Part shown: in pieces, positions 10,885 to 58,999 of the stretch
Position numbering within the stretch: the stretch's first letter is position 1
Layout of the letters: each line of letters starts with the position of its first letter
DNA from: a virus
Lineage: Duplodnaviria; Caudoviricetes
Virus record (IMG/VR): IMGVR_UViG_3300033405_000003
Reading direction: 5' to 3' (one strand)
DNA: 64,000 nucleotides
Notes under the pieces: generated by a model
The model's input: only the letters and a program-made list of their open reading frames with translations
Database searches by the model: none
Told to the model about the DNA's origin: nothing
Program-made: the position numbers and the translations under genes

Positions 10885-11025
10885 CCTGGTTCTTGGACGC
10901 GAGGGAGCTGGAGCGCGCGATGCCGATCATGGCGTTCGCCCGCGACCCGCGGCGCCAGTACATCGTCTATCCTTTCCTCGGGTTCGCGAGGTGGCCGAGG
11001 GTGTTCTGGTGAGGGAGAAATACGC

Positions 11026-11640: not shown

Positions 11641-11890
11641 ACGCGAAGATGAAGATCTCGGAGGGCACCCTCCGCCTCCAGAGCAGCATCTGCAGGGCCG
11701 CCGACCTGCCCAGGCTCGAGGAGGCCACGGTCACGGACCTCGAAGACTCGGCCGAGTCCCTCATCGAGTTGTGGAGCGACGGGAACGTCATCGGGCACTA
11801 CCTGATGGTCGTCAAGCGGCGCCCGAAGAAGCTCAGGTACCGCGAGCCGCTGCGCCTGCTCGCCGTCATCCGCAAGCACGGGCTAGAGCC

Positions 11891-24191: not shown

Positions 24192-25064
24192 ATGATCCCG
24201 ATCCCCGTCTTCTACACCCACAAGATGGTCGCGGAGTCGGGCTGCGAGTCGCCGAGCGCGCTCAAGCCCGCCGCGGTCGTCGAGTCCTGGAAGCTCGAGT
24301 TCCCCGTCGAGATCATCCCGCCGTTGCCGGCGACGCTCGAGGAGCTTTGCCTCGCGCACGACCCGGAGTTCGTGAAGAACGTCCTGCTCGGCAAACGCGC
24401 GAACGGGTTCGGCAACAAGTCTCCGGCGGTCGCGGCGTCGCTCCTCTACACGACGGGCTCGATGCTCTCGGCCGCGCGCCACGCGCTCGCGTCGGGCGGC
24501 GCTGCCGCGGCGCCGTGCTCGGGGTTCCACCACGCGGGCTACGCGAGCGCCGAGGGGTTCTGCACGTTCAACGGGCTCATGGTTGCCGCGCTCGCGCTGA
24601 AGAAAGCGGGCAAGGTCGAGCGCGTCGGCATCCTCGACCTCGACTACCACTACGGCAACGGCACCGACAACATCATCCGCAAGCTCGGCTGCGAGAAGTG
24701 GATTTGGCACTTCACCGGCGGCGCCCGCTACACGAGCCCCTCGCAGGTGCCGGAGTTCTTCAGGGACAAGCTGCCGGAGGTCCTCGCGGCGATGACGACG
24801 TGCGACCTCGTCCTCTACCAGGCGGGCGCCGACGCGCACATCGACGACCCGTACGGCGGCTGGCTCACGACCATGCAGCTCCTCGAGCGGGACGCGATCA
24901 TCTTCAGCGCGCTCCGCGACGCCGACGTGCCCGTCGCCTGGAACCTCGCGGGCGGCTACCAGGTGGAGAAGGACGGGAGCATCCCGAAGGTGCTCGAGAT
25001 CCACGACAACACCATGCGCGAGTGCGTAAGCGCGTTCAGCGCGCCCAAGGACGCATCGAAGTGA
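24192..25064 (+). CDS. histone deacetylase family protein
   Basis: GFHHA, GFCTFN, LDLDYHYGNGT, QAGADAHIDDP, AGGY. Confidence 0.93.
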   Translation: MIPIPVFYTHKMVAESGCESPSALKPAAVVESWKLEFPVEIIPPLPATLEELCLAHDPEFVKNVLLGKRANGFGNKSPAVAASLLYTTGSMLSAARHALASGGAAAAPCSGFHHAGYASAEGFCTFNGLMVAALALKKAGKVERVGILDLDYHYGNGTDNIIRKLGCEKWIWHFTGGARYTSPSQVPEFFRDKLPEVLAAMTTCDLVLYQAGADAHIDDPYGGWLTTMQLLERDAIIFSALRDADVPVAWNLAGGYQVEKDGSIPKVLEIHDNTMRECVSAFSAPKDASK

Positions 25065-25436: not shown

Positions 25437-25512
25437 GGTGGATGTAGCCAAGTGGTTAAGGCGCTGCGTTGTGGCCGCAGTATTCGCGAGTTCGATCCTC
25501 GTCATCCACCCC
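25437..25512 (+). tRNA. tRNA-His(GTG)
   Basis: cloverleaf, G-1, ctgcg-tt-GTG-gc-cgcag. Confidence 0.9.
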
Positions 25513-25571
25513 GTCGAAAAAAGTTCTTGCACGTTCCCCGAAACCATGTCCTAGTGACTGAAGACACTCCG

Positions 25572-25760
25572 ATGCACACCTCGATGCCGAAATCGCCCAT
25601 GCAGACCCGGAGGCCGCTGAGCCAATCAGCAGTGCTTTCAGGGTCGTGGTGCATTTTGTGCCCAGTGACAGCGCCCGGAGTCGATAGCCTTGCACGCGTT
25701 TATCCGGCCTCCCCCAGCGAACCGAAGTTCGCGACGCGCAATCAGGAGGCCGGTACCTAG
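25572..25760 (+). CDS. putative 62-aa attenuator leader peptide
   Basis: 40 distinct codons, all 20 aa; stop abuts antiterminator strand. Confidence 0.6.
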   Translation: MHTSMPKSPMQTRRPLSQSAVLSGSWCILCPVTAPGVDSLARVYPASPSEPKFATRNQEAGT

Positions 25761-25832
25761 AGGCGGTTCTTTCACTCGCGCAACAGCGCAGGAAGGGCCG
25801 CCTCGGAGACGAGAGCGGCCCTTCGGCATTTC
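25760..25832 (+). terminator. mutually exclusive antiterminator/terminator hairpins
   Basis: 25760-25773 pairs with 25791-25804; alternatively 25792-25801 pairs with 25815-25824; weak U tract. Confidence 0.65.
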
Positions 25833-25971
25833 AGGGTCCGAAAAATTCGAAGGAGTGCAGATCGCGCACTAGCGATCTGCCCAAGCGGCGACTGCCGATC
25901 ACAGGAGACGTGTGTCCGATGAACGCCATGGCTCGAGAACGATATCAAAGCTCCGAACTCCCATATCGCAT

Positions 25972-26057
25972 GGGGCGTGTTCTGAGCGGTAGTAGCTCTA
26001 GCCGGCTGTAACCCGGTGGCCTTTTGGCAAGTGGTGCAACTCCATCACGCCTCACCA
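25972..26057 (+). tRNA. tRNA-Tyr(GTA), atypical
   Basis: ccgg-ct-GTA-ac-ccgg, V arm, 3' ACCA; T loop TGCAACT. Confidence 0.8.
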
Positions 26058-26121
26058 AGACAAGGACGAAGACGATGAAAACGAAGACCGCGCCCGTGAA
26101 GGCGGGCCCAAAAGAAAGCGA

Positions 26122-26193
26122 GGGACGTTAGCACCAAGGTGGTGCAGCCGCCTTTTAAGCGGCAAGGGCTCGGTCCGATTCCGAGGCGTCCCA
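26122..26193 (+). tRNA. tRNA-Lys(TTT)
   Basis: gccgc-ct-TTT-aa-gcggc. Confidence 0.85.
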
Positions 26194-26212
26194 CTCAGCC
26201 ACGAGGCTGAAC

Positions 26213-26286
26213 GGGTCTGTAGCTCGAGTGGTCGAGCAACCGCCTCTTAAGCGGAAGGTGAGGGATCGTTCCCCTCCAGGCCCACC
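26213..26286 (+). tRNA. tRNA-Lys(CTT)
   Basis: ccgc-ct-CTT-aa-gcgg. Confidence 0.85.
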
Positions 26287-26314
26287 CCGGAAGGTTTTTC
26301 TCAGATTCAGATAT

Positions 26315-26387
26315 TCGGGTCTCGTCTAACGGTAAGACAGCGGTCTCTGGAACCGCGAATGAGGGTTCAACTCCTTCGACCCGAACC
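26315..26387 (+). tRNA. tRNA-Gln(CTG)
   Basis: gcggt-ct-CTG-ga-accgc. Confidence 0.9.
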
Positions 26388-26516
26388 GGCGCTCACTCGA
26401 GCGCTTGGCCCTTGAAAATTTGGAAGGACGTGACGCGCGCAGCCGGCTCTCGGGTGCGCGGGCGGTCTCTCCTGTTCGTCAAGAAACACGGGGAGGGCCA
26501 TGTGGCCCTCCCATAT

Positions 26517-26598
26517 TCCTGGGTGTTCCGAATGGTAAGGTGCCCGGCTGTTAACCGGTGGTCGAAAGACGCTGTAGGTTCGATTCCTACCCCAGGAG
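26517..26598 (+). tRNA. tRNA-Asn(GTT) with long variable arm
   Basis: ccgg-ct-GTT-aa-ccgg; V arm gtc-gaaa-gac; G73. Confidence 0.8.
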
Positions 26599-26607
26599 CT
26601 TGTGTTT

Positions 26608-26679
26608 GCCGACGTGACGAGGCGTCACCGCTCCCTTGTAGCGAGCGAGGCTAGGGTTCGAGATCCCTTCGTCGGCTCC
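26608..26679 (+). tRNA. tRNA-Thr(TGT), degenerate
   Basis: gccgacg/cgtcggc, short D arm, ct-TGT-ag loop with C.C mismatch. Confidence 0.65.
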
Positions 26680-26681
26680 GT

Positions 26682-26756
26682 GCTGGTGTAGCTCCAAGGT
26701 GGAGCACCTGTTTCGTAATCAGGAGGGCTGCGGTCCGATTCCGCTCACCAGCTCCA
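26682..26756 (+). tRNA. tRNA-Thr(CGT)
   Basis: tt-CGT-aa loop, 3' TCCA. Confidence 0.85.
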
Positions 26757-26757
26757 C

Positions 26758-26829
26758 GCGCCCTTCGTCTAGTGGTCTGGATCCTCGACTTTCAATCGAG
26801 AGGTGAGGGATCGTTCCCCTCAGGGCGCA
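26758..26829 (+). tRNA. tRNA-Glu(TTC)
   Basis: ctcga-ct-TTC-aa-tcgag. Confidence 0.85.
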
Positions 26830-26856
26830 CAAATACATATCTACTCAAATACTCAT

Positions 26857-26930
26857 GTCCCTATCGTCTAGATGGCCAAGGACGGTACCCTCTCAAGGTA
26901 CAAACCGGGGTTCGAATCCCCGTGGGGACG
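26857..26930 (+). tRNA. tRNA-Glu(CTC)
   Basis: gtacc-ct-CTC-aa-ggtac, canonical T loop. Confidence 0.9.
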
Positions 26931-26935
26931 CAAAC

Positions 26936-27011
26936 GGGCAGAGAGCTAGTCTAGTGATAGCGCCGGTCTGAAGAGCCGGATAACTCGGTGCGATCCCGAG
27001 TCTGCCCACCA
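26936..27011 (+). tRNA. tRNA-Phe(GAA)
   Basis: ccggt-ct-GAA-ga-gccgg, 3' ACCA. Confidence 0.85.
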
Positions 27012-27012
27012 T

Positions 27013-27084
27013 CAGGGTGTCGCACAATGGTAGTGCCCGAGCTTTGGGTGCTCGTACTTGCCAGTTCGAGTCTGGCCACCCTGA
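27013..27084 (+). tRNA. tRNA-Pro(TGG)
   Basis: cgagc-tt-TGG-gt-gctcg. Confidence 0.88.
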
Positions 27085-27103
27085 CTAGTGACTAGTGAGA
27101 TAT

Positions 27104-27187
27104 GCCACCGTGGCGGAATAGCAGACGCGCTAGCTTGAGGTGCTAGTGTCCTCGTGACGTGAGAGTGCAAGTCTCTCCGGTGGTACC
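27104..27187 (+). tRNA. tRNA-Leu(GAG)
   Basis: ctagc-tt-GAG-gt-gctag, long V arm. Confidence 0.9.
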
Positions 27188-27191
27188 GTTC

Positions 27192-27268
27192 GCAGAGCTA
27201 GGCTAACCGGTAAAGCTAGTGCGTCCTAAAAACGCGCGACTCGGGGTTCGAATCCCCGGCTCTGCACC
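27192..27268 (+). tRNA. tRNA-Leu(TAA), short V loop
   Basis: tgcgt-cc-TAA-aa-acgcg (C33). Confidence 0.8.
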
Positions 27269-27271
27269 CGA

Positions 27272-27348
27272 GTGGACGTAAGTCTAATTGGTAAAGCTAC
27301 CATACTCAAAATATGGTGTTTGTGAGTCCGAGTCTCACCGTCCACACC
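27272..27348 (+). tRNA. tRNA-Leu(CAA), short V loop
   Basis: ccata-ct-CAA-aa-tatgg. Confidence 0.85.
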
Positions 27349-27362
27349 GTCAATAACGCACT

Positions 27363-27435
27363 GTCCTTGTGGCTCAATGGATAAAGCAGCGCTTTCCTAA
27401 AGCGAAGATTGCCCGTTCGAATCGGGCCAAGGACG
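27363..27435 (+). tRNA. tRNA-Arg(CCT)
   Basis: cgct-tt-CCT-aa-agcg, A20. Confidence 0.88.
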
Positions 27436-27458
27436 CGGAGTAGAGAAAGGGAGATCCC

Positions 27459-27653
27459 ATGAAGTTCGCGCACCCGGGCGGGCTCGACGTGGCCTACGTC
27501 GTGGTCGCTCGAGGAGAAGTCCACGCCACCGCCGACACGCTCGACGCGGCTCAGAAGATCGTGGACATGAAGAGGTCCGGCCGCGACGGGAGGAAAGGCG
27601 GCAACCCGACCGCTGGAGCGAAGCTCGAGTGGTCGATCGAGAAGGTTGAATGA
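27459..27653 (+). CDS. small hypothetical protein inside tRNA array
   Basis: AAAGGGAG RBS, high GC3. Confidence 0.6.
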   Translation: MKFAHPGGLDVAYVVVARGEVHATADTLDAAQKIVDMKRSGRDGRKGGNPTAGAKLEWSIEKVE

Positions 27654-27658
27654 TTCAA

Positions 27659-27733
27659 GGCTCGTGATGCGATAAGTATCGCAGCTCCTCTGTCTAAGGA
27701 GTGAAACGGGGGCGGTACCCGTACGAGCCGCCA
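27659..27733 (+). tRNA. tRNA-Asp(GTC), degenerate T loop
   Basis: ctcct-ct-GTC-ta-aggag, 3' GCCA. Confidence 0.75.
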
Positions 27734-27734
27734 T

Positions 27735-27805
27735 AGGAGTCAGGTCACGGTGACCGGCGAGCCTCCAAAACTCGCGTCGAGTGGGTTCGACCCCCACGGC
27801 TCCTG
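27735..27805 (+). tRNA. tRNA-Trp(CCA)
   Basis: ct-CCA-aa loop, short D arm. Confidence 0.8.
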
Positions 27806-27811
27806 CTGATG

Positions 27812-27906
27812 ACCTGTCGGGTCGCTATCGTTTGGTTACCCTGCCTTGTACGCAGGGCGCCCTTCCCGGGCGCCTAACCTCCAAGCGGTGTCCTTCATCC
27901 GACGGT
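27812..27906 (+). ncRNA. Y-RNA-like RNA
   Basis: TGTCGGGTCG...GGTTACC...CTTCATCCGAC, same motif as the four RNAs after Ro60. Confidence 0.75.
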
Positions 27907-27928
27907 TCACATCATGACAGGAGGGATC

Positions 27929-28048
27929 ATGTTCACCACGGCGCGCGACGAGGACGGCACCTTCTACTTGTTCTGGCGCGGCGCGCTGATCTACAAGCGC
28001 TGGCCGAGCGGCGCGTCTCGCGTCTTCTACTCACGCACTCAACTTTGA
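27929..28048 (+). CDS. 39-aa peptide MFTTARDEDGTFYLFWRGALIYKRWPSGASRVFYSRTQL
   Basis: AGGAGG RBS directly after Y-RNA-like gene. Confidence 0.6.
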   Translation: MFTTARDEDGTFYLFWRGALIYKRWPSGASRVFYSRTQL

Positions 28049-28055
28049 TGTCCAC

Positions 28056-28127
28056 GGGCTGATAGCTCAATTGGGAGAGCGCCGGCTTCGCATGTCGGAG
28101 ATCCGGGTTCGAAACCCGGTCGGTCCA
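28056..28127 (+). tRNA. tRNA-Ala(CGC)
   Basis: tt-CGC-at loop, G3.U70. Confidence 0.9.
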
Positions 28128-28142
28128 CTGTCTGAAATTCGA

Positions 28143-28213
28143 GGGGCTGTCGTCTAATGGGAGGACGCCGCGCTGGCAGCGCGGCAATAAGAGTTCAATT
28201 CTCTTCAGCTCCA
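28143..28213 (+). tRNA. tRNA-Ala(GGC)
   Basis: ccgcg-ct-GGC-ag-cgcgg, G3.U70. Confidence 0.9.
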
Positions 28214-28227
28214 CTGCTCACGTATCT

Positions 28228-28303
28228 GGGTCCTTAGCTCCAACTGGGAGAGCGCCTGTTTTGCAAGCAGGAGGTTGTCGGTTCGATCCCGACAGGATCC
28301 ACC
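28228..28303 (+). tRNA. tRNA-Ala(TGC)
   Basis: tt-TGC-aa loop, G3.U70. Confidence 0.9.
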
Positions 28304-28462
28304 GGGTGATCGTCACTCGTAGGACGCATACACGCATAATAACAGGTTCGATTCCTGTATTCCCCGCCCTTATGGGGAATATGCCAATGGTCGGCAGTTA
28401 GCCCTCGAAGCTAATCAAACCAACCCGAAAGGGTTGTGCACCCCAAACTCGACGACCACCCG
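28303..28462 (+). ncRNA. circularly permuted tRNA-Arg(TCG)-like RNA inside a closing stem
   Basis: order T arm, acceptor 3' strand+GCC, linker, acceptor 5' strand, D arm, anticodon arm; outer stem cgggtgatcgtc/gacgaccacccg. Confidence 0.7.
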
Positions 28463-28466
28463 ATTC

Positions 28467-28538
28467 GCTGGCGTAGCTCCAAGGCGGAGCGCCTCATTGG
28501 TATTGAGGAGGGCTGGAGTTCGATTCTCCTCGTCAGCT
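28467..28538 (+). tRNA. tRNA-Thr(GGT)
   Basis: cctca-tt-GGT-at-tgagg. Confidence 0.88.
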
Positions 28539-28540
28539 CT

Positions 28541-28641
28541 GGCGCAGCCGCTCCCAGGAGCTAGGCGGACCTGACCGTGCACGGGCGGGCGAGCTGAAAA
28601 GCACTCTGCGGAGGGTGGGTGAGAGGCCCACGGCGCCGCCA
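28541..28641 (+). ncRNA. unassigned structured tRNA-like RNA ending GCCA
   Basis: ggcgc/gcgcc-G-CCA, T-like arm gtggg-tgagagg-cccac, four internal hairpins. Confidence 0.5.
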
Positions 28642-28645
28642 ACGC

Positions 28646-28719
28646 GCGGGTGAAAGACTGCAGTGGTCGCCAGGCCTTCCAAGCCTTGGAGCGTCGGTGC
28701 GAATCCGACCATCCGCTCC
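28646..28719 (+). tRNA. tRNA-Gly(TCC)
   Basis: aggc-ct-TCC-aa-gcct, U73. Confidence 0.8.
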
Positions 28720-28731
28720 GACGAAGAATTC

Positions 28732-28802
28732 GCGGGTGTAGCTCGAGGGTCGAGCAACGCGTTCCCAACGCGAAGGTGGGGTTTCGATTACCCTCACCCG
28801 CT
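28732..28802 (+). tRNA. tRNA-Gly(CCC)
   Basis: cgcg-tt-CCC-aa-cgcg. Confidence 0.85.
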
Positions 28803-28816
28803 CAAATATCAAATAT

Positions 28817-28891
28817 GCGGATAAGGCCGACTAGTGAGGCACTTCGTTGCCAACGAAGTTCAGACGGGTGCGATCCCCGTTATCCGCTCCA
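28817..28891 (+). tRNA. tRNA-Gly(GCC)
   Basis: cttcg-tt-GCC-aa-cgaag, 3' TCCA. Confidence 0.85.
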
Positions 28892-28892
28892 T

Positions 28893-28964
28893 GAGCCCGT
28901 TCGCTAGCGCGGCAGCCGGTCTGCAAAACCGACTTCGAGGGTGCAATCCCCTCCGGGCTCTCCA
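28893..28964 (+). tRNA. tRNA-Cys(GCA)
   Basis: cggt-ct-GCA-aa-accg, 3' TCCA. Confidence 0.8.
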
Positions 28965-28965
28965 T

Positions 28966-29036
28966 GCTCCCGTTCTGATGGATCAGACAGCGGTTTTCTA
29001 GTCCGCATGCTGCGTGTTCGAATCACGCCGGGAGCA
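28966..29036 (+). tRNA. tRNA-Arg(TCT)
   Basis: gcggt-tt-TCT-ag-tccgc, canonical T loop. Confidence 0.75.
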
Positions 29037-29163
29037 CGAAGTGGGAGTGGCGATGTCACGCGTACGGTCCACACCGGATTGAAACCCTGGTCTTCGTGGT
29101 GACTCACCGAGCGCGCGGCAGGACCAGGGATCGCTAGTCACGGCCCCAGCTCCTTCTTCATTT

Positions 29164-29238
29164 CTCCTCGTGGCCCAATGGACAAGGCACCGGTCTACGG
29201 AACCGTGAGATGCAGGTTCGACCCCTGCCGAGGAGGCC
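29164..29238 (+). tRNA. tRNA-Arg(ACG)
   Basis: cggt-ct-ACG-ga-accg. Confidence 0.9.
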
Positions 29239-29317
29239 GTGGGCCGTGGGGGTAACCAATCCTCCGATCGTGAGAAACGACCCCCTGCACGTCGGGCGGC
29301 GAAGAGGACGTGCACCT

Positions 29318-29390
29318 CCCCTCGTCCATGCGGATCATGGCACGACCCTCCGATGGTCGTTGGCTGCGTTCGAGTCGCAGCGAGGGGGCC
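29318..29390 (+). tRNA. tRNA-Arg(CCG)
   Basis: cgacc-ct-CCG-at-ggtcg. Confidence 0.8.
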
Positions 29391-29459
29391 GCGGCAACTT
29401 GGAGTGCGTCGGCTCTCATAAGGCTGAACGCGACGGTTCGATCCCGTCTGCCGCGACCA
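29390..29459 (+). tRNA. tRNA-Met(CAT), truncated D arm
   Basis: ct-CAT-aa loop, 3' ACCA, D arm reduced to act-tgg-agt. Confidence 0.75.
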
Positions 29460-29479
29460 CGTCAGACCACGTCGACCGC

Positions 29480-29557
29480 GCCAACGTAGCCCAACTTGGT
29501 AGGAGGCACCTGACTCAGGATCAGGGCAGTGTGGGTTCGAATCCCTCCGTTGGTACC
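29480..29557 (+). tRNA. tRNA-Leu(CAG), short V loop
   Basis: cctga-ct-CAG-ga-tcagg. Confidence 0.85.
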
Positions 29558-29582
29558 GATTCTTTCTTTTTGATAATTGTGA

Positions 29583-29653
29583 TGGGGTATGCCGAAGCGG
29601 CAATCGAGCCTTTGAAGCTCGAAACGGCGGAGCGTTACCGTCTACCCCAACCA
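29583..29653 (+). tRNA. tRNA-Gln(TTG), degenerate
   Basis: cgagc-ct-TTG-aa-gctcg, short D arm, T loop AGCGTTA. Confidence 0.75.
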
Positions 29654-29681
29654 GCGCGGACGTGGTACATGTCTGCACCAT

Positions 29682-29757
29682 CAGAGTGTCGTACAATCTG
29701 GTAGTACACGTGCTTCGGGTGCACGTTATCCCGGTTCAAATCCGGGCACTCTGACCA
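29682..29757 (+). tRNA. tRNA-Pro(CGG)
   Basis: cgtgc-tt-CGG-gt-gcacg, 3' ACCA. Confidence 0.9.
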
Positions 29758-29760
29758 CTC

Positions 29761-29834
29761 GGGTCCATCGTCCAACACGTAGGATGTCTCCCCCACACGG
29801 AGAAGATGACCGTGCGAATCGGTCTGGACCTACC
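29761..29834 (+). tRNA. tRNA-Val(CAC)
   Basis: tctcc-cc-CAC-ac-ggaga. Confidence 0.8.
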
Positions 29835-29839
29835 GCCAC

Positions 29840-29915
29840 GGGAGGTGAGTGAGCTAGTGAACACGCTACCTCGACAAGGTAGTCTCGATGGGTGCGATCC
29901 CCATACCTCCTACCA
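29840..29915 (+). tRNA. tRNA-Val(GAC)
   Basis: ctacc-tc-GAC-aa-ggtag, 3' ACCA. Confidence 0.8.
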
Positions 29916-29917
29916 GC

Positions 29918-29991
29918 GGACACGTCTCTGGGAGTTACCAGAAGCGCGTCTTATAAGCGCGTAAAGAGCGGCGCACCTCCGCACGTGTCCA
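29918..29991 (+). tRNA. tRNA-Ile(TAT), degenerate T arm
   Basis: cgcgt-ct-TAT-aa-gcgcg; ggacacg/cgtgtcc. Confidence 0.7.
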
Positions 29992-30042
29992 CGGATCTTG
30001 GTCTGTTATCTTCACTTCACACGTCACTGCGAACTACAACTC

Positions 30043-30118
30043 GGGCGCATCGTCCAACGGTTTAGGACGGCTCTCTGATAAGGAGCAAATCAAAGTTCAA
30101 CTCTTTGTGCGCCTACCA
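30043..30118 (+). tRNA. tRNA-Ile(GAT)
   Basis: gctct-ct-GAT-aa-ggagc, 3' ACCA. Confidence 0.9.
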
Positions 30119-30137
30119 GCCCCGAAACGGATTTGCC

Positions 30138-30671
30138 ATGTCCCCCACGACCACCCTCATCCTCAACCACTACATGCTCCCGCACAGGGTCAGCACCTGG
30201 CAGGAGGCCATCACGGAGCTTTTCACCGACAAGGTCGAGATCCTCCGATGGTACGACGACGTCGTTGTCTACCACAACGCCGAGCGCGGCATCACGATGA
30301 AGATGCCGGCCGTCGCGCGCCTGCTCAAGCCAGTCGCGACGCACAAGAAGGGCGTGAAGTTCTCGAGGGTCAACGTCATGGCCCGTGACAACTTCGTCTG
30401 CCAGTACTGCGGCAACAAGTTCGCGATGTCCGAACTCAACTACGACCACGTCCTGCCCCGCGTGCAGGGCGGCAAAACGGTCTGGGAGAACATCGTCACG
30501 AGCTGCTACGACTGCAACGACAAGAAGGGCGCCCGCACCCCCGAGCAGGCGAAGATGAAGCTCATTCGCAAGCCCTTCAAGCCCAAGACCCTCCCCCTCG
30601 CGCAGCCCGTCCTCGCGATGAGGGACATCCCTCTCGAGTGGGAACCCTGGACGGGTAGCGTCGCGGTGTAA
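30138..30671 (+). CDS. HNH endonuclease
   Basis: FSRVNVMARDNFVCQYCG, DHVLPR, WENIVTSCYDCNDKKG. Confidence 0.92.
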   Translation: MSPTTTLILNHYMLPHRVSTWQEAITELFTDKVEILRWYDDVVVYHNAERGITMKMPAVARLLKPVATHKKGVKFSRVNVMARDNFVCQYCGNKFAMSELNYDHVLPRVQGGKTVWENIVTSCYDCNDKKGARTPEQAKMKLIRKPFKPKTLPLAQPVLAMRDIPLEWEPWTGSVAV

Positions 30672-30708
30672 AAACCGCGACGCGCGCCGCGCAGAACACG
30701 CGGCGTCT

Positions 30709-30782
30709 CGGAGTGTGGCTCAGTCTGGTAGAGCGCTCGGCTGGGGGCCGAGAGATCACAGGTTCAAATCCTGTCACTCCGA
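30709..30782 (+). tRNA. tRNA-Pro(GGG)
   Basis: ctcgg-ct-GGG-gg-ccgag, canonical. Confidence 0.92.
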
Positions 30783-30797
30783 CTGTAATCTCGGAAC

Positions 30798-31469: not shown

Positions 31470-33161
31470 ATGACACGCTACTCGACCCACGTCTCGAACC
31501 TCTCCACCCCGCAGCGCGAGAAGGCCCGCCCCGACCAGGTGGAGAACAACGCCGGGGGCTTCGTCTTCCAGCTCGACTGCTGGCAGCGCCTCGACAGGTT
31601 CCTCGTTCTCGGAACCGAGGGCGGCACGTACTACGCTGGCGAGAAGGAGCACACGATCCAGGCCTCGAAGGCCGTGGAGGAGTGCATCAGGGCCGACGGG
31701 CCGCGCACGGTCGCGCGCATCGTCGAGATCTCGGACGGGGGCCGCGCGCCGAAGAACGACCCCGCCATCTTCGCGCTCGCGATGTGCGCCGGGGCCGACG
31801 GCCCCGCGACGCGCCAGGCCGCGCTCGCCGCGCTGCCGAAGGTGTGCCGCATCGGCACGCACCTCTTCCACTTCGCCGCAGACGTCGAGTACTTCCGGCG
31901 CTGGGGCCGGTCGCTGAGGACCGCCGTCGCCAAGTGGTACAACGACAAGACCGCGAGCGACCTCGCGTACGACTGCATCAAGTACCAGCAGAGGGACGGC
32001 TGGGCGCACCGGGACGTCCTGCGCCTCGCGCACCCGACGCCCAAGACCCCCGAGCACGCGGCGATCATGCGCTACGTGACCGTCGGTATGGCCGGCATGT
32101 CGGAGAAGCGCGAGAAGCACGCGCGCGACAAGGCGCACGACAAGGACAAGCTCCCGGCGATCATCGCCGCGTTCGAGGAGATCCACTCGGCCGGCGTCAC
32201 GCCCGGCCGCGCGGCGCGCCTCATCTCGGAGTTCAGGCTCCCCCACGAGTGCGTCCCGAACGAGATGAAGAACGAGAAGATCGTGTGGGAGGCGCTCCTC
32301 GAGCACATCGGCCCGACTGCGCTCATCAGGAACCTCGGCAAGCTCTCGAGCCTCGGAATGACGAAGCCGATGGGCGAGCATACGAAGCTCATCGCCGAGA
32401 AGCTCGCCGACAAGGCCGCGCTCAAGAAGGGACGCGTTCATCCGATGACCGTCCTCTACGCGATGAAGACCTACGCGGGAGGGCACGGCCTGAAGGGCTC
32501 GCTCTCGTGGACGCCGGAGCGCGCCGTCGTGGACGCGCTCGACGACGCCTTCTACGCGAGCTTCGACGTGATCGAGCCGACGGGCAAGGCGACGTTCCTC
32601 GCGCTCGACGTGTCGGGCTCGATGGGCACGCCCATAGGCGGCACCTCGCTCACGTGCCGCGAGGCCAGCGCAGCGATGGCGATGGTCACCGCGCGCGCCG
32701 AGAAGAACTGGGCGTGCGTCGGGTTCACGTCCGGCGGGCGCGGCTACGGCGGGATGCACGGCGGCGACCCGTCCGGCGTCACCGAGCTGAAGGTCAGCCC
32801 GCGCCAGAGGCTCGACGACGTCGTCAAGGCGATCTCGGGCCTGCCGTTCGGAGGGACGGACTGCGCCCTGCCGATGCTCCACGCGACCAAGCACAACCTC
32901 GCCGTCGACGTCTTCCACGTCTACACGGACAACGAGACGTGGGCCGGGGCAGTCCACCCGTTCCAGGCGCTCGAGCAGTACCGGCAGAAGTCGGGTCGGG
33001 ACGCCAAGATCTGTGTCGTCGGGATGACGGCGACCGAGTACACCATCGCCCAGCCCGGTTCGGAATGGATGAAGGACGTCGGCAAGAACCCGAGGTCGCT
33101 CAACGTGATCGGGTTCGACACGACGGCGCCGAGCATCATGGCGGAGTTCGCGCGGGGGTGA
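31470..33161 (+). CDS. rsr: Ro60 / TROVE-domain RNA-binding protein with vWA domain
   Basis: NNAGGFVF, RFLVLGTEGGTYY, KYQQRDGWAHRDVLRLAHP, LDVSGSM, GGTDCALPM, TDNETW. Confidence 0.96.
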   Translation: MTRYSTHVSNLSTPQREKARPDQVENNAGGFVFQLDCWQRLDRFLVLGTEGGTYYAGEKEHTIQASKAVEECIRADGPRTVARIVEISDGGRAPKNDPAIFALAMCAGADGPATRQAALAALPKVCRIGTHLFHFAADVEYFRRWGRSLRTAVAKWYNDKTASDLAYDCIKYQQRDGWAHRDVLRLAHPTPKTPEHAAIMRYVTVGMAGMSEKREKHARDKAHDKDKLPAIIAAFEEIHSAGVTPGRAARLISEFRLPHECVPNEMKNEKIVWEALLEHIGPTALIRNLGKLSSLGMTKPMGEHTKLIAEKLADKAALKKGRVHPMTVLYAMKTYAGGHGLKGSLSWTPERAVVDALDDAFYASFDVIEPTGKATFLALDVSGSMGTPIGGTSLTCREASAAMAMVTARAEKNWACVGFTSGGRGYGGMHGGDPSGVTELKVSPRQRLDDVVKAISGLPFGGTDCALPMLHATKHNLAVDVFHVYTDNETWAGAVHPFQALEQYRQKSGRDAKICVVGMTATEYTIAQPGSEWMKDVGKNPRSLNVIGFDTTAPSIMAEFARG

Positions 33162-35298: not shown

Positions 35299-35574
35299 TC
35301 ACGTTTGCTCCGTGTGATGCCCGCAGTGCGGACAGGTACCGGGCGTGGGGAAGCGACCGGCGAGGACGTCGTCCACGCCAACCGACGCGAAACGCGCGAT
35401 GCGGACGGCCAGGCTCGCGCTGGCCACCTTGCGCGAGCATGCGATCTGTCCGAGCGTCGTCGCCTTGAAGTGCAAAGCCTTTGCAACTGGCTCCCACCCG
35501 CCGCAACGCGCCCGCAGGTAGCGGAGCGCGGTGCGGACGTTGGTCTGCTCGGCAGGCGTGAGGTCGGCGCTCAT
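35299..35574 (-). CDS. XRE-like HTH protein with CPHC, coupled to transposase
   Basis: ATGA overlap with transposase stop; similar to 12867/13250. Confidence 0.75.
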   Translation of the reverse strand: MSADLTPAEQTNVRTALRYLRARCGGWEPVAKALHFKATTLGQIACSRKVASASLAVRIARFASVGVDDVLAGRFPTPGTCPHCGHHTEQT

Positions 35575-36815
35575 TGTGACGCTCCGTTCGCGACAGGCGG
35601 GAGCCAGAACTTCGGCTCGATGTTGAACTCGTAGATCGAATGGACGAGCGTGGAGAGGTTGAAGCAGAGGCACTTCAGGAGCACCTCGTTCACCTGCGCT
35701 ACGGGCAGCTTGCTCCGAAGCGCGGCACCGAACTTCTTCTTCATCGCGCCGAACGTGCTCTCGACGTTGGAGCGCTTGTGGTAGTGCGCGAGGAAGTCTT
35801 CCTTGTTGAGGGAGTAGTAGTGAAACATCCGCTCCCACGCCGGGCTGCCCATGCTCTTCGAGTTGAGCTTGAACGGCACGAACGGCGTCGCGCCGACGCC
35901 CTCGACGATGGCGAGGTTCGCGTGGCTCAGGTAACCCTTGTCCGCGCTGATCTCCTTCATGTCGTAGCCGTGCGCAGCGGTGCGCTCGACGAGCGTCTTG
36001 AACATCGGTGAGTCGTGCACGGTGCTGTCGGTGACCGCGACGGACGTGATGATGTTGGTGACGGTGCCGATCATGGCATGGCACTTCACCCACTTCTGGA
36101 CGCGGCGATCTTCGCCGTGCTTGTAGTCGAACCATCGCACGTACGTCGGCGTTGCGAAGCCAGTCGCGTCGGCCGCGAAGTCGTGCTCGATGGCCTTGAG
36201 CGGCGTCGCGGCAAGCTCGACGAGGCTCGTCAGCACGGGCGTCAGCTCGGGCTTCTGGCAGTAGTTGAAGATCGAGTTGTAGTGCGGCTGCCGCGTCATG
36301 AGGCCTGCGGCCTTGCACGCCTTGATGTCCGTGGTCGCGCGTCGCCCGCTGACGGTCGTGTAGACCTTGGTCGCCATGCCGTACACCGCGTCCGCGAGCG
36401 GGATGGGCTTGGGACCGCGTCCGGGGTGTGGAGGCGTCACGATCGTGTCGCAGAGCGAGCGGAGGAGGACCTGGGAGACCTCCTTCTCGGTGCACTGCGC
36501 CGCGTTGTACGCGCGCCAGTCTTGGGAGTACGAGATGCGTTCTACGGTTTCGGTCACGACAGTCGTCCCGTCGGGCATCTGCACTTCGTGGCGGAAGTAC
36601 CGGAGTGCCCAGAGGTGCTTGCAGAGATCGCGATGCGTCTCGTAGTCCGGGCACGTACACTCGCTCTTGACCGCGTCGACGACGTAGCCGCTTCCCGAGT
36701 TTGTGGCCGACGGCACGAGAAACATGTCGCCAGAGATTTGCCGGAACAGCTTGGCGCGCCCCTTCGCGAGAGCGAGCCCCCGTTCCTGCCGAGGACTGAT
36801 GACTGCCGTATCCAT
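35571..36815 (-). mobile_element. DDE transposase (IS4/IS5/ISH3-like) with N-terminal SWIM Zn finger
   Basis: CTCPD...CKH; ADATG, ADKGY, YHKRSNVES; element ends not found. Confidence 0.88.
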
Positions 36816-49424: not shown

Positions 49425-50191
49425 CAGCTCGCCGTCAAGCTGCGCTTGAGCGCCTCGAAGAGGTCCGTGATGATGGCCTTGGGCGCCTCCTCGGCGAACG
49501 AGACCTCGAGCCCCGCGATCTTCTGGTCGACGGCCGCGCGGACGCGGTCCTGGTACTCGTCGCGGTACCTCTCCGCCTTGAACTCGGGCGAGCTGAGCTG
49601 CGCGATGAGCTTGAGCGCCATCTCCATCTCTAGGTCCTTGAACGCGGCCTTGGCGGGCGCGATCTCGTCGTAGCTCCGCACCTCGCCCGCGTAGTAGATG
49701 TACTGGAGGACGAGGCCGTTCTTGTACGGCCGGATGAAGACGACCTGCTGCCGGCCGCGGGTCCAGTAGCGGCCGACGGCGACCCGGCCGGCGCCCTCCA
49801 TGGCCTGCGCGAGGAGCTGGAACGCCTTGTCGCCGCCCTTGTCCGGCCCGATGTAGAAGCTCTTCTCGACGTGGATGGGGTCCACGGTCTCCTCGGGGAC
49901 GAACTCGGTGATCTCGAGCGAGTCGATCTTCGCGGACTCGAGCTTCTTCAGCTCCTCCTCCGTGAACTGGACGTACTGGTCCTTGGCGAACTCGAAGCCC
50001 TTGACCATGTCGGTGCGCTCGACGACGACGTTATCGACGGGGCAGAGATATTGCTGCTTCATCCGGCCGCCGCACTTCTTGTGGAGCAGGTTGAAGGAGA
50101 GGTTCTGCGAGGAGGCCGCCGTGTAGACCTTGAAGGGGATCGAGACGAGGCCGAAAGAGATGGTACCGGAACCGATTGCGCGGGCTGTCAT
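49424..50191 (-). CDS. ku: Ku DNA end-binding protein (core only)
   Basis: RAIGSGTISFGLVSIP, MVKGFE, ITEFVP, YRDEYQ, DLFEALKRSL. Confidence 0.95.
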   Translation of the reverse strand: MTARAIGSGTISFGLVSIPFKVYTAASSQNLSFNLLHKKCGGRMKQQYLCPVDNVVVERTDMVKGFEFAKDQYVQFTEEELKKLESAKIDSLEITEFVPEETVDPIHVEKSFYIGPDKGGDKAFQLLAQAMEGAGRVAVGRYWTRGRQQVVFIRPYKNGLVLQYIYYAGEVRSYDEIAPAKAAFKDLEMEMALKLIAQLSSPEFKAERYRDEYQDRVRAAVDQKIAGLEVSFAEEAPKAIITDLFEALKRSLTAS

Positions 50192-50215
50192 GGGGAGCAA
50201 GGTAACGATCCTGGG

Positions 50216-50270
50216 CTGGGAGTCAAGTGACGTTGTCTGGGAGTCAAGTGACATTGTTTGGGAGTTATCT
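50216..50270. repeat. 21-bp direct repeats (2 full + 1 partial) over divergent promoters
   Basis: CTGGGAGTCAAGTGACRTTGT x2, then TTGGGAGTTA. Confidence 0.85.
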
Positions 50271-50311
50271 AACCCTTGCGTTTCCGCAGCGGCATCGCTA
50301 CCTTGGCGGCC

Positions 50312-50500
50312 ATGAGGAAAGCCGACGAAGGCATCAGCACGGTCCAACTGTCCATCCGCGTCCCGAAGGACTGGCCGGCGCGCGCCGAGAGGATCGCGGA
50401 GAAGCTCTCCGTGCCCGGCATCACGTGCACGCGGATGGACGCGCTGCGCGCCGCACTCGAGATCGGGTTCAAGAGCCTCGAGAAGAGGAAGAAGAGGTAG
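50312..50500 (+). CDS. RHH-like regulator divergent from ku
   Basis: VQLSIRVPKDW...TRMDALRAALEIG; TTGCGT-17-TACCTT-7-ATG. Confidence 0.65.
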   Translation: MRKADEGISTVQLSIRVPKDWPARAERIAEKLSVPGITCTRMDALRAALEIGFKSLEKRKKR

Positions 50501-51143
50501 CGACATGGGGAGCCATTCGACGATCGAAGAGAGAGACGGGCAGGTCGTTCTTTTCCACCGCGTTTACGCCCACGAAGGATTCGAGGAGAGCGCGCGCGCC
50601 ATTTTCCGGGTCATCCAAGTCGCGTTGAAAGCCCAGCCAGGCAAGAAGCGGATCTTCTTCTTGCTCATCGATGGGCACCGGAACGCGGCGGGCGGTTTCG
50701 ACGCGGAGATGCTCGAGCTTCAGGGCGAATTTATGTTCAAGCACGTGATGCCGTTCCTCACGGAGATCCATATCCCGCTCGGCGCCTACCGGAACAGCAA
50801 GCCGCAGCGGGACGACGCCCCAGAGGGGGTGACCTTCGCGAGCGAAGCCGAAAAATTCTGATGCCGAAGTGCCCGAAGTGCCACGGGACGGGACGCATCA
50901 AGGCCGAGCCCCTCACATATGCCGAGCGAGTGTTGCGCGTCCGGTACCCCTCGTGCGGCGCCCGCGCCCGCCAACTATGCCGCGGCTCGCAGAAACCGCG
51001 CGTCAAGACCCCGCACGTCGACCGCGTGGACGAGGCGAAGCGCCAGGGATGGGTGTCGCGGTGAGCGACCCTTGACGGGCGGTTCGATCGATTTAGCTTG
51101 CAGGCGGTCCTCGAGCACTGTAGTCCCTTAGTCCTCTAGCACC

Positions 51144-55697: not shown

Positions 55698-55848
55698 AAT
55701 GGGAATGACCCTTGGCGCCGAGAGCGTAGCGCTCCCTCAATAGAGCTAAGAGCTATTGCGTCAAGCATCGTAACGACTATCGACTTGCTAGGTGCGGATA
55801 GGTAACCGCCACACAAGAATCATCACAAGAGAAAGGAATTATAAAATC

Positions 55849-56688
55849 ATGCGTTCATCAAACAAGTCCATCAATCTGAAGCTGCCCTCCATCGAGGCAC
55901 ATAGTGCCTGCTACGCGCTCATCGGTACCGGTCCGATGCTGGTCCACGCATTCGGCCAGAAATCGTTCACCGAGATGCTCGAAAAGATGGTCGGCTGTCG
56001 CCAGGACGGTACGCCTCTCGACTCTGAACGCGAACCCAAGGATCTCGAGCGCGAGTTCGTGGACGCCCACGCATTCAACGAGCGGGGCGAGGAGGTGATC
56101 CCTTGTCGATGGATCAAGGCCGGTATGCTCACGGCCGTCGCCGCGAGTCGAAAGCAACTCAACGCTTCGGCGATGCGGCGCGCGGTTCGCGTGACGGGCT
56201 TCACCTCTCCCATCCTCGACCCAAAGGGTCGCAAGGCCGCCACAGCCGAACTTCAGCACGACGTCGTCCGCGTCGGCTCTTGGTCGAACCGCACTCCCGA
56301 CGTCCGCGCACGGCCGCGCTACGATGAGTGGATGATCGAAATCGTCGTCAAGGTGATCGTCGATCAGGTTCCCATGGAACACGTGGCCTGGGCGCTCTCC
56401 GCCATGGGCGAGCTGGTCGGTCTCGGCGACTGGCGAACGGAAAAGAACGGTGAGTACGGCTTTTTCAAGATCAAGGGCCTTCACGTAAACGAAACCGATC
56501 GCATCATGAAGGCTTGCTCTTCACCCGAGCGTAGGCTCGTCATCCCGCCCGCACTCATGACGGCAATGAAGACCAAGGGCATTACCCAAGCTCAGGTGCA
56601 CGAAGAGATGGAGCGCATCAAGGGTGGTGGCAAGAACAAAAGCAAGAGCCGCTCGAACGGTGCTCAGTCCCACGGCGAAGTGTCATGA
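55849..56688 (+). CDS. stand-alone RAMP/Cas7-like RNA-binding protein
   Basis: AAAGGA RBS; LIGTGPMLVH, IPCRWIKAGM, VRARPRYDEW, Gly-rich loop VGLGDWRTEKNGEYGFF. Confidence 0.75.
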   Translation: MRSSNKSINLKLPSIEAHSACYALIGTGPMLVHAFGQKSFTEMLEKMVGCRQDGTPLDSEREPKDLEREFVDAHAFNERGEEVIPCRWIKAGMLTAVAASRKQLNASAMRRAVRVTGFTSPILDPKGRKAATAELQHDVVRVGSWSNRTPDVRARPRYDEWMIEIVVKVIVDQVPMEHVAWALSAMGELVGLGDWRTEKNGEYGFFKIKGLHVNETDRIMKACSSPERRLVIPPALMTAMKTKGITQAQVHEEMERIKGGGKNKSKSRSNGAQSHGEVS

Positions 56689-57275
56689 CGTCGACAAAGA
56701 AAGGGGCTCGCGTCAACAAAGTGCGGGCCCCTAGGATCACTGCGAGGGGCAAATACACGGTCGAAGAGATCCGTGAGGCCTGGATCATCTTCACCGAGAT
56801 GACTGGCGGCGGAGATTGGCGAAACTCGCTCACACCCGAGTTTGTGCTCGAACAGGTGCTCGCCGACAAGTCACACCCGTTGAGGCGTTACCTCGAACGT
56901 GACGTCGAGAAGGCTGCTCATCAACATTGGATCAGCCAAATCGGCCATCTGATGAATGAGGTCCGCATCTCAGTCATCGTCACTCAAGAACCTGGCAAGG
57001 TCATCCGCGTGCAGACGCGTTCGCTCGTGCACATGCCGAGGACCGCGACTCGCGACGCGGGGCGCCGCCCTCTCCGGCAGATTCGCAAAACGAAAGAGGA
57101 TCGTGACGCTCTGGCAAGGATTCGCGCGCAGTATCTACGATCCTGGGTCGGAGCGACCGAGGCACAGCTCGCCGCCATCGATGCCAACCAGTCAGCGCTT
57201 GTGGCGTTGCTTTCAGATGTGAAGCGAGCGCTCAGGCGCTTCGACGACTCTCTCAACATCGATGCTGCTGAATAA
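56685..57275 (+). CDS. helical partner protein of the RAMP-like gene
   Basis: ATGA-coupled; LTPEFVLEQVLADKSHPLRRYLERDVEKAA. Confidence 0.75.
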   Translation: MTSTKKGARVNKVRAPRITARGKYTVEEIREAWIIFTEMTGGGDWRNSLTPEFVLEQVLADKSHPLRRYLERDVEKAAHQHWISQIGHLMNEVRISVIVTQEPGKVIRVQTRSLVHMPRTATRDAGRRPLRQIRKTKEDRDALARIRAQYLRSWVGATEAQLAAIDANQSALVALLSDVKRALRRFDDSLNIDAAE

Positions 57276-57284
57276 CGTAAGAAT

Positions 57285-58030
57285 GGACTGTAATAGGGGA
57301 AAGGAAGGGACAGGACTGGACGGTATAGGAGTGGAACGGCCGGTAACGGAGCCGACAGGAGAGTAATGGATCGACAGGAGAGTAATGGATCGGCCGGTAA
57401 ATGGAACTGATTGGAAGCGAGCGGAACGGACGTGGCGGGATCGGTGTGGAGCGGATCGGCCGGTAATGGATTGGACGGGACATGAACGTATTGGAGTCGA
57501 AGTGACAGGACTGGCCGGAAAAACGGAATGTATCGTAGGGGAACCGAACGGAACAGAATCGAACGGACCGGCCGGAAATGGAATCGATGGGAATGGAGTG
57601 ACGAGGAAAGGATCGTAAGGGATAGGACAGGACCGGAACGAGAATTGGTCGGAAAATGGATAGGAGCGAGCGGAGGCGTGAGGGAACGAAGCGGCCGGTC
57701 AAAAGGGAGCGGATGGAGAGGAATGGAGAGGAAAGTACAGGAACGGTTGATAATGGAACGAAGACGACCGGACTGGCCGGAAAAGCGGAATGTATCTGGA
57801 GAGGATAGGATAGGAAAGAAGGGAACAGGATCGGCCGGATAGCGGAATCGAGAGGACAGGCCAGTACAGGGAACGGACCCGATAGGAGGCGAGTCGACTG
57901 GAGTGGAAACGGAAGGGCCGGAAGAGGAATGAAATGAATGGACTGGAGCGGCCGGAGAACAGGAACGGAATCGATCGGATAGGAAGCGATCGTATCGGAC
58001 GGGAGTGGAAAGGCCGGACAGTGGAAAGAA
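57285..58030 (+). repeat. GGA-NN pentamer array in ~12 units delimited by GGCCGG (putative guide-RNA array)
   Basis: 5-nt periodicity; GGCCGG at 57338, 57392, 57458, 57513, 57570, 57693, 57775, 57833, 57916, 57950, 58012 and GGTCGG at 57647. Confidence 0.9.
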
Positions 58031-58219: not shown

Positions 58220-58999
58220 ATGGCCTTCCGCGACGCCTGGATCCCCAACGGTCGCGTCTCGAAGCGCGTGCACTTCATTCTCGGTGCTGGCACCGTTGCG
58301 CTCTTCTTCATCGCGTGGGGCCTGCGACCGACGTTCATGCCCGGACCTATGGACGTTCTTCGCGCGTACCCGCGGCTCGCGGACCAGGGACTCGCTCAGC
58401 AGCTCTTCGTGAGCCTCACGACAAATTTCCAGGCCATCGGTCTTTCGTGTCTGCTCACGATTCCGCTCGCGTACCTCACGGTGCTCCCAGCCGCGAGGCC
58501 CTTCGTGCGCACGCTCTCGAAGATGCGTTTTTTGGGACTCACGGGCCTCACGGTCGCCTTCACGCTCGCCTTTGGCGGCGGCCACGCGCTCAAGGTCGCG
58601 CTCCTCGTGTTCGGCATGGGCGTCTTTCTCGTGACGAGCCTCTACGACGTCGTCGAGGCCATCCCGAAGGAAGAGTTCGACCACGCGCGCACGCTCCGCA
58701 TGTCGCCGTGGGGCGCCGTCGTCGAGATCGTCGTGCTCGGCCATCTCGACGCGGTGCTCGACGCCGTCAGGCAGAACGCGGCGATGGGCTGGGTGATGCT
58801 CACGCTCGTCGAGGGTCTCGTCCGCTTCGAGGGCGGCCTCGGCTCGATGATGCTCGCCGAGGACAAACACGTCGCGCTCGATGCCGTCTTCGCGATCCAG
58901 CTCCTTGTCCTCGTCGTCGGCGTGCTCCAGGATCTCGCGCTCTCGTGGCTTCGGCGCATCCTCTGCCCGTATGCGAGCCTCACGCTGGAGCGACAATGA
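58220..58999 (+). CDS. ABC transporter permease (SsuC/TauC-like)
   Basis: multiple TM helices; IPKEEFDHARTLRMS EAA-like loop. Confidence 0.85.
   Translation: MAFRDAWIPNGRVSKRVHFILGAGTVALFFIAWGLRPTFMPGPMDVLRAYPRLADQGLAQQLFVSLTTNFQAIGLSCLLTIPLAYLTVLPAARPFVRTLSKMRFLGLTGLTVAFTLAFGGGHALKVALLVFGMGVFLVTSLYDVVEAIPKEEFDHARTLRMSPWGAVVEIVVLGHLDAVLDAVRQNAAMGWVMLTLVEGLVRFEGGLGSMMLAEDKHVALDAVFAIQLLVLVVGVLQDLALSWLRRILCPYASLTLERQ

Follow-up and report, generated by a model that had tools for sequence, protein, structure and literature searches.

We examined a 64,000-nt stretch of DNA (hereafter the window) from the IMG/VR virus record IMGVR_UViG_3300033405_000003 (Duplodnaviria; Caudoviricetes), in which positions 55849–58030 hold two genes followed by an array of five-nucleotide repeats. 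The first gene, vipr (55849–56688, plus strand), encodes 279 amino acids (aa), and the second, vap (56685–57275, plus strand, 196 aa), is translationally coupled to it through an ATGA overlap at 56685. The array (57285–58017) begins 9 nt past the end of vap, lies on the same strand as vipr, and falls within about 750 nt that contain no credible open reading frame (ORF). The gene coordinates and the overlap bear out a first-pass annotation of this DNA, which had described two coupled genes followed by about 740 ORF-free nt. The intergenic region upstream of vipr (55698–55848, plus strand) contains a ribosome-binding site and no pentamer repeat, and presumably carries the promoter of the cassette. 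No CRISPR-like repeat–spacer tandem repeats occur in the 64-kb window and the neighbour proteins tested matched no cas family, in line with the earlier statement that neither lies nearby.

The layout recalls VIPR (Viral Interference Programmable Repeat), a virus-borne kind of RNA-guided DNA-silencing system, related to CRISPR, that was published in 2026 (10.64898/2026.04.26.720920; structures in 10.64898/2026.04.26.720927). VIPR combines a minimal RAMP protein (Vipr), an accessory gene, and guide RNAs (vrRNAs) of 9–16 YNNGG units (10.64898/2026.04.26.720920). One Vipr protomer occupies each unit, with GGY flipped out and held by the protein, and the NN dinucleotides pair with DNA with one base skipped between them (10.64898/2026.04.26.720920; 10.64898/2026.04.26.720927). 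Binding silences transcription, and the natural targets include satellites, prophages, and other VIPR systems (10.64898/2026.04.26.720920). Seven types have been described, with arrays that are head-to-tail ("staggered"), separated by ribozymes, or reduced to single guides; the accessory genes (vaps) vary by type and can be nucleases or helicases, and some types have "a related consensus" (10.64898/2026.04.26.720920).

Several lines of evidence identify the product of the first gene as a Vipr protein. Pfam gave no match for either gene product. When the first protein alone was searched against all PDB sequences, the only match was 36pp_D ("SUSP1 Vipr protein", E 0.0045), in an alignment that spans the thumb base and the G-loop, and a 53-sequence family profile recovered the same SUSP1 Vipr at E 2.2e-16, with nothing else below 0.5. 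The AlphaFold2 model (pLDDT 73) had 75 Foldseek matches in the PDB at E<=1e-3, and the top-listed matches were all Cas7-type RAMPs (Csm3, Cmr, type VII, and type IV backbones), which is the fold that the first-pass annotation had proposed to check for. In a viral model library the best matches were uncharacterised virus proteins and one "Cas system-associated RAMP" protein. The protein combines an RRM core with a thumb loop (about residues 141–150), a G-loop at G187–G204 (GLGDWR at 191–196), and a C-terminal extension (about 210–279) that is confined to the closest relatives. A profile search of 1.84 billion representatives found a family of 3059 proteins at E<=1e-3, whose conserved columns are G26/P29/H33 in strand 1, P85..K90 in helix 1, and the G-loop G187–G204 with its GDWR; these coincide with the strand motif, IP..IK helix, and glycine-rich loop picked out earlier by eye as RAMP hallmarks. 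In SUSP1 Vipr, residues H17, R138, D177, W178, and R179 bind the two guanines G1 and G2 (10.64898/2026.04.26.720927); in our alignments they correspond to H33, R155, D194, W195, and R196, of which R155 and R196 are invariant across the family.

As an independent test we fetched 120 IMG/VR loci by a DNA pattern, (GGYNN)x7, and searched them with a profile built only from relatives of the first gene. A Vipr-like ORF adjoined the array in 77 of the 120 loci, with the repeats on the strand of the gene in all but two, and array and gene shared a strand at almost every one of the 95 Vipr loci inspected. Sequence homology, modelled fold, the guanine-binding residues, and this test at GGY loci together thus establish, from sequence and model, that the first gene encodes a Vipr protein. 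Separately, PADLOC reported a weak match of Vipr to NsnC (E 2.6e-4, residues 104–183), and NsnC, a candidate defence-system component, may by this sequence similarity be a Vipr/RAMP relative.

The period of the array is strong and local. Base autocorrelation over 57285–58030 reached 0.479 at lag 5, compared with 0.307 +/- 0.016 in 2000 shuffles (z 10.7), which is the peak that the first-pass annotation had proposed to look for in this interval; lags 10, 15, and 20 were high too, and a 3-nt signal was absent. A sliding scan found this to be the sole such period-5 tract in 64 kb. A sequence logo anchored on GGA, which uses no fitted register and is thus free of fitting bias, gave G 0.57, G 0.67, and A 0.82 in the preceding unit, with the two variable positions near-uniform. 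A register fitted by dynamic programming divided the tract into 140 pentamers with G 0.81, G 0.77, and A 0.87 and with the variants GTA, CGA, TGA, and GAA, in agreement with the near-constant triplet and variable dinucleotide noted at first sight. The third base is therefore A in 0.82–0.87 of units, and C at this position is confined to the unit that closes each guide.

The closing unit forms part of a boundary motif that divides the array. Exact GGCCGG occurs 11 times in the array, or 14.7 per kb, compared with 0.71 per kb over the remainder of the window, and 9 of the 11 copies directly precede an A-rich linker (TAA, AAA, ATA, or AAG), the other two being followed by TCAAAAG and ACAGT. The units are 34–83 nt long and run head to tail, with only GGCCGG and a 3–8-nt linker between repeat runs. 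Three long units are further split by degenerate boundaries (GGTCGG at 57647, GGTTGA at 57745, and GGCCAG at 57859), giving about 14 guides of about 5–13 pentamers each where the first-pass annotation, which had already recognised GGCCGG plus an A-rich spacer as the delimiter, had about 12 units. The format of a guide is thus an A-rich linker, about 5–13 units of the form (G/x)(G/T)A-NN, and a closing GGCCG-G.

All guides lie on the plus strand. Guide 1 (57298–57343) consists of 8 clean pentamers and ends in GGCCGG, and guide 2 (57344–57397) contains an internal exact duplication of 19–20 nt. Guides 3 (57398–57463), 4 (57464–57518), and 5 (57519–57575) have 11, 9–10, and 9 pentamers, respectively. 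Guides 6 and 7 (57576–57698) are split by the degenerate GGTCGG with its AAAA linker, and guides 8 and 9 (57699–57780) by GGTTGA with TAAT. Guide 10 (57781–57838) starts with GGAAT GTATC in common with guide 5; guides 11 and 12 (57839–57921) are split by GGCCAG; guide 13 (57922–57955) is short, with about 5 pentamers; and guide 14 (57956–58017), with 10–11 pentamers, is the last unit closed by GGCCGG. An Rfam scan of 55–59 kb found no ribozyme or other family, so the array contains no hammerhead. The naked array RNA folds better than shuffled sequences (z -3.4), mainly because the self-complementary CGGCCG boundary motifs pair with each other, and we do not take this as evidence of functional structure.

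Arrays of the same kind accompany the relatives of this Vipr. The six relatives L001, L002, L004, L008, L249, and L250, with Vipr proteins 38–89% identical to that of the window, all have GGA-type arrays, GGC-type boundaries, and a homologous vap, and thus answer the suggestion that homologues be examined for pentamer arrays. The NN content of their arrays differs, the constant triplet and the boundaries are kept, and the modules lie among other neighbouring genes. When IMG/VR was scanned with the pattern (GGANN)x6, at least 9 further contigs had a Vipr-like ORF beside the GGA-NN match, and in 8 of 9 a period-5 array also adjoined the gene. GGA arrays therefore occur in several Vipr lineages: in a quick maximum-likelihood tree, drawn from a pattern-chosen sample and arbitrarily rooted, the GGA label changes between 2 times (the number that branches with good support force) and 6 times among GGY lineages. 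GGA runs end in a GGC unit in the clade of the window and also in L063, L070, L098 (20/20), and L114. The clade was absent from 185,579 representative cellular genomes.

Some relatives had features of their own. L249 (Vipr about 60% identical) has further period-5 tracts besides its main array, at 2191–2600, 3151–3440, 3851–4410, 7231–7430, 10671–11000, and 11271–11850; these are scattered over 12 kb, some under called ORFs, and are possibly dispersed guide arrays. In L098, at about 10400–10460 (minus strand, 3' of the array), about seven tandem copies of an 11-nt unit, CCGACAACAAA, directly follow a 1.3-kb GGA array. Public gene calls place minus-strand ORFs of 305–358 aa over the pentamer arrays of L002 (1675–2751) and L250 (3717–4634), and these are almost certainly spurious database proteins.

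The second gene, vap, is kept beside vipr in the clade at 31–69% identity and is therefore part of the module and qualifies as a vap, though in one sub-clade (L249) the order is vipr, terminator hairpin, array, and then vap. Its product falls in phrog_15946, of unknown function, Pfam assigned no family, and searches for nuclease or helicase motifs and families came up empty. The model (pLDDT 74) consists largely of helices, and the protein has a basic N-terminus and basic segments; Foldseek found nothing in the PDB at E<=1e-3, and a wide VIA-align search returned only generic helical hairpins (Z<=7.1). A complex prediction for Vipr and Vap scored 0.00, and we draw no verdict from it. Small and helical with basic segments, the protein is closer to the "predicted DNA-binding" vaps.

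Compared with published systems, the locus is most like VIPR with "staggered" arrays (10.64898/2026.04.26.720920, fig. S18 legend). It shares the Cas7-like Vipr with G-loop and thumb, the two-gene operon, co-oriented intergenic 5-nt units of three constant and two hypervariable bases, 8–13 of them per guide compared with 9–16 in published systems, and probably a viral or mobile element as its carrier; like a minimal VIPR locus, it has vipr and one accessory gene, with neither cas hits nor a CRISPR array. It differs from canonical VIPR in that the constant triplet is GGA rather than GGY (YNNGG), in the closure of its guides by GGCCGG and an A-rich linker, and in a vap of no recognised family. 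Since a related consensus has been published for some types, GGA excludes the canonical form of VIPR and not membership of the family. The text of the VIPR papers covered here names GGY, NNNGG, YNNNG, NNNNG, GAC, CAC, WGT, and TGH and no natural GGA repeat, a statement that covers the text and not the logo figures, where GGA may be drawn. The VIPR arrays found with the Evo-PIN language model likewise have period 5 and a non-GGY triplet and lie beside Vipr-like folds (10.64898/2026.10.21.760802), so the constant triplet can vary between clades; the triplets named in that text are GAC, CAC, WGT, and TGH, and GGA is not among them (10.64898/2026.10.21.760802).

The closest characterized protein is that of the type II VIPR of Escherichia phage SUSP1 (PDB 36pp), which is homologous to ours and shares the residues that hold G1 and G2 (here R155, D194, W195, R196, and H33). 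SUSP1 Vipr has 202 aa, compared with 279 aa here including the C-terminal extension, and the pocket for the third base differs: E71/M72 in SUSP1 are R87/W88 here, C173 is V190, and V175 is L192. SUSP1 vrRNAs are about 100 nt long with a pseudoknot 3' tail, whereas the guides in this array are shorter and lack the tail that marks type II. Class 1 CRISPR-Cas backbones (Cas7/Csm3 on CRISPR RNA) are alike in their RAMP fold, in having one protomer per fixed RNA step, and in a thumb that periodically breaks the guide–target duplex; the step is 6 nt with one flipped base in CRISPR and 5 nt with three in VIPR, and the present locus has no repeat–spacer array, Cas6, Cas5, large subunit, or adaptation genes. 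The first-pass annotation had pointed to VIPR-type systems and suggested a GGA variant, and both the homology of the protein and the published VIPR papers support it; the novelty that it implied is lost, as the kind was already published in 2026.

We therefore consider it probable, at roughly 85%, that this locus is a VIPR system, comprising vipr, a clade-specific vap, and about 14 vrRNA guides, carried on a virus-like element of about 218 kb. By homology with the SUSP1 system, the array would be transcribed and one Vipr protomer would bind each 5-nt unit of a guide to form a filament, with the thumb and the G-loop (R155, D194-W195-R196) flipping out and holding the constant triplet. The variable dinucleotides of successive units would then pair with double-stranded DNA, with one base skipped between dinucleotides, and the outcome would be the silencing of genes of competing mobile elements. 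The first-pass annotation had put forward a similar arrangement, with the protein polymerising on the RNA, one subunit per pentamer gripping the constant triplet and displaying NN, and GGCCGG at the guide boundaries. The closing GGC unit, with the wrong third base, could end the filament, and the A-rich linker left exposed next to GGCCGG could be the site at which the transcript is cut.

Several results, including those of the target searches described below, count against this reading. Some units of the array are degenerate (TGGCG, GGTGT, and units of 4 nt and 6 nt), and a scan of the cassette for promoter and terminator consensus found nothing above shuffles and no sigma-70-like site. A search of IMG/VR did not return the element itself but only a 38%-identical relative, and no capsid, terminase, or other hallmark virion gene was identified in the window. 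A further objection comes from SUSP1, in which changing GGY to GGA abolishes silencing and the third-base pocket "sterically excludes purines" (10.64898/2026.04.26.720927), so recognition of GGA here needs a different pocket. No clean signature of residues in that pocket separates the GGA from the GGY classes. The G-loop position equivalent to SUSP1 V175 (192 here) is Leu in 12 of 13 GGA-type and 24 of 75 GGY-type loci, where Ile and Val dominate, though these counts are phylogenetically non-independent. The helix-1 pair R87/W88 was considered as a GGA signature and rejected, being peculiar to the clade of the window and not found in other GGA lineages.

Target searches gave one lead. We scanned for exact patterns with a 1-nt skip using the native guides at 57403 (22 fixed bases), 57580 (24), and 57962 (20), and found no credible target for these three in IMG/VR (0, 0, and 2 matches), JGI metagenomes (0 and 0), or GTDB genomes (0). 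The two IMG/VR matches belong to one virus of 31% GC and were judged to be chance because the skipped base falls off the wobble position. Since the scans accepted exact matches only, targets with 80–95% NN match would have been missed. When all guides of the clade were compared with the window and related loci, a single match rose above background. A guide of the sister element L001 (8070–8114, nine units from linker to GGCCG), whose Vipr is about 89% identical to that of the window, matches window positions 35348–35373 (minus strand) at 17 of 18 NN positions with a skip of 1, and the skipped bases fall on codon position 3 (wobble) of a 91-aa ORF coupled to a transposase gene. None of 60 shuffled guide sets reached 17/18, and among 280 sliding nine-unit windows this was the only 17/18, with 16/18 occurring at every skip value; we estimate the family-wise chance of such a match at about 0.02–0.1. 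By its sequence the match would fit inter-element conflict and the published skip rule, and we treat it as a lead only and not a demonstration. The neighbouring transposase (35571–36815, minus strand) has SWIM and DDE_Tnp_1 domains and is ATGA-coupled to the 91-aa ORF, which has a CPHC zinc-ribbon-like C-terminus (region 35299–36815).

These observations also bear on other explanations of the locus. The system could be a VIPR relative with an output other than transcriptional silencing of DNA, in which vap makes it target-destroying or RNA-targeting, as proposed for the nuclease-bearing types III–V. The lack of any family or fold match for vap leaves room for this, and the accessory genes of published systems vary with type, nucleases and helicases being among them (10.64898/2026.04.26.720920). 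We nonetheless find it unlikely, given that vap yielded no nuclease or helicase motif or family and its small helical form with basic segments is nearer to the "predicted DNA-binding" vaps, and that the sole target lead lies within coding sequence in the wobble register, as in the silencing type II system.

The array might also be a remnant in decay that no longer works, or a decoy that titrates a competitor's Vipr, and its many non-GGA units, degenerate boundaries, and internal duplications, together with the absence of targets for the native guides scanned, could be read in this way. Internal degeneracy, however, is common in working vrRNAs (10.64898/2026.04.26.720920), vipr and vap are intact, coupled, and directly upstream, and the module is kept across relatives 38–89% identical in which NN varies while triplet and boundaries stay, all of which makes a remnant or decoy quite improbable. 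Less probable still, to the point of being hardly credible, is that the tract acts at the level of DNA, as iterons, bent DNA, or a protein-binding scaffold, or that it is a cryptic coding repeat, in either case with no connection to the genes beside it. Mechanically called ORFs do overlap the tract on both strands, and gene callers put ORFs on the tracts of relatives, but a period of 5 without a 3-nt signal means that the tract is not coding, and a DNA-level element is hard to reconcile with a tract that accompanies Vipr genes, on their strand, in more than 80 loci of unrelated viruses.

Within the preferred VIPR reading, we offer a more tentative proposal, which we regard as doubtful on present evidence, that GGA-type VIPRs are a distinct and recurrent "dialect" of the code. 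In such a dialect, the base-3 pocket would accept a purine, and the GGC unit would act as a stop signal that ends each filament, fixing how long a guide is and where it is cut with no need for ribozymes or structured tails. Such a system would be orthogonal to GGY. The guides of this lineage may be aimed at sister elements, as suggested by the L001 guide that matches the window.

Many samples yielded contigs, the longest of 218.8 kb, that carry an identical cassette, and its carrier is best read as a large (about 218-kb) virus-like or extrachromosomal element. The 35 tRNA genes, the mostly orphan ORFs, and the recurrence of the contig across samples give the element a viral look. Upstream of the cassette are an OmpA/MotB-like protein and an unknown protein, and downstream are a weak permease-like match (58220–58999) and an ATPase (60030–60896). 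The earlier suggestion that the cassette splits an ABC operon thus does not stand, with the ABC-like genes all downstream and the modules of relatives in other neighbourhoods. Most ORFs of the window are orphans, and many have no family. The window also contains the 35 tRNA genes, at 25438–30783 and 43643–45195, of which 31 form one plus-strand block that covers most amino acids, and one call (44872–44947) has a four-base anticodon loop, "atct". Just downstream of the tRNA block is a Ro60/TROVE and vWA protein (31470–33161, plus strand; Pfam E 3e-54 and 3e-37), near which a Y-RNA-like partner may lie. We further detected a Ku homologue (49424–50506, minus strand, E 2e-43), a histone-deacetylase-family protein (24192–25064, plus strand, E 3e-31), and an imperfect tandem repeat (16039–16546) of about 3–4 copies of 114–120 nt, 72–74% matched, in or beside a minus-strand ORF.

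The first descriptions of VIPR date from 2026, with the argument that it is older than CRISPR, and its published rule is GGY/NN, with a solved structure that explains the requirement for a pyrimidine at base 3. The kind of system is therefore already known; what sets this locus apart is its constant triplet GGA, the way GGC/GGCCGG punctuates guides that have no tail, and a vap of no known family. Its value is in showing how diverse the VIPR code is in nature rather than in a new system. The GGC closing unit provides a simple, testable punctuation rule for tail-less multi-guide arrays. The GGA class offers naturally occurring material for studying the reading of base 3, and it suggests orthogonal guide/protein pairs for multiplexed DNA targeting. 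That GGA is used by a widespread natural class, in several Vipr lineages, shows that evolution can change even the constant part of the code.

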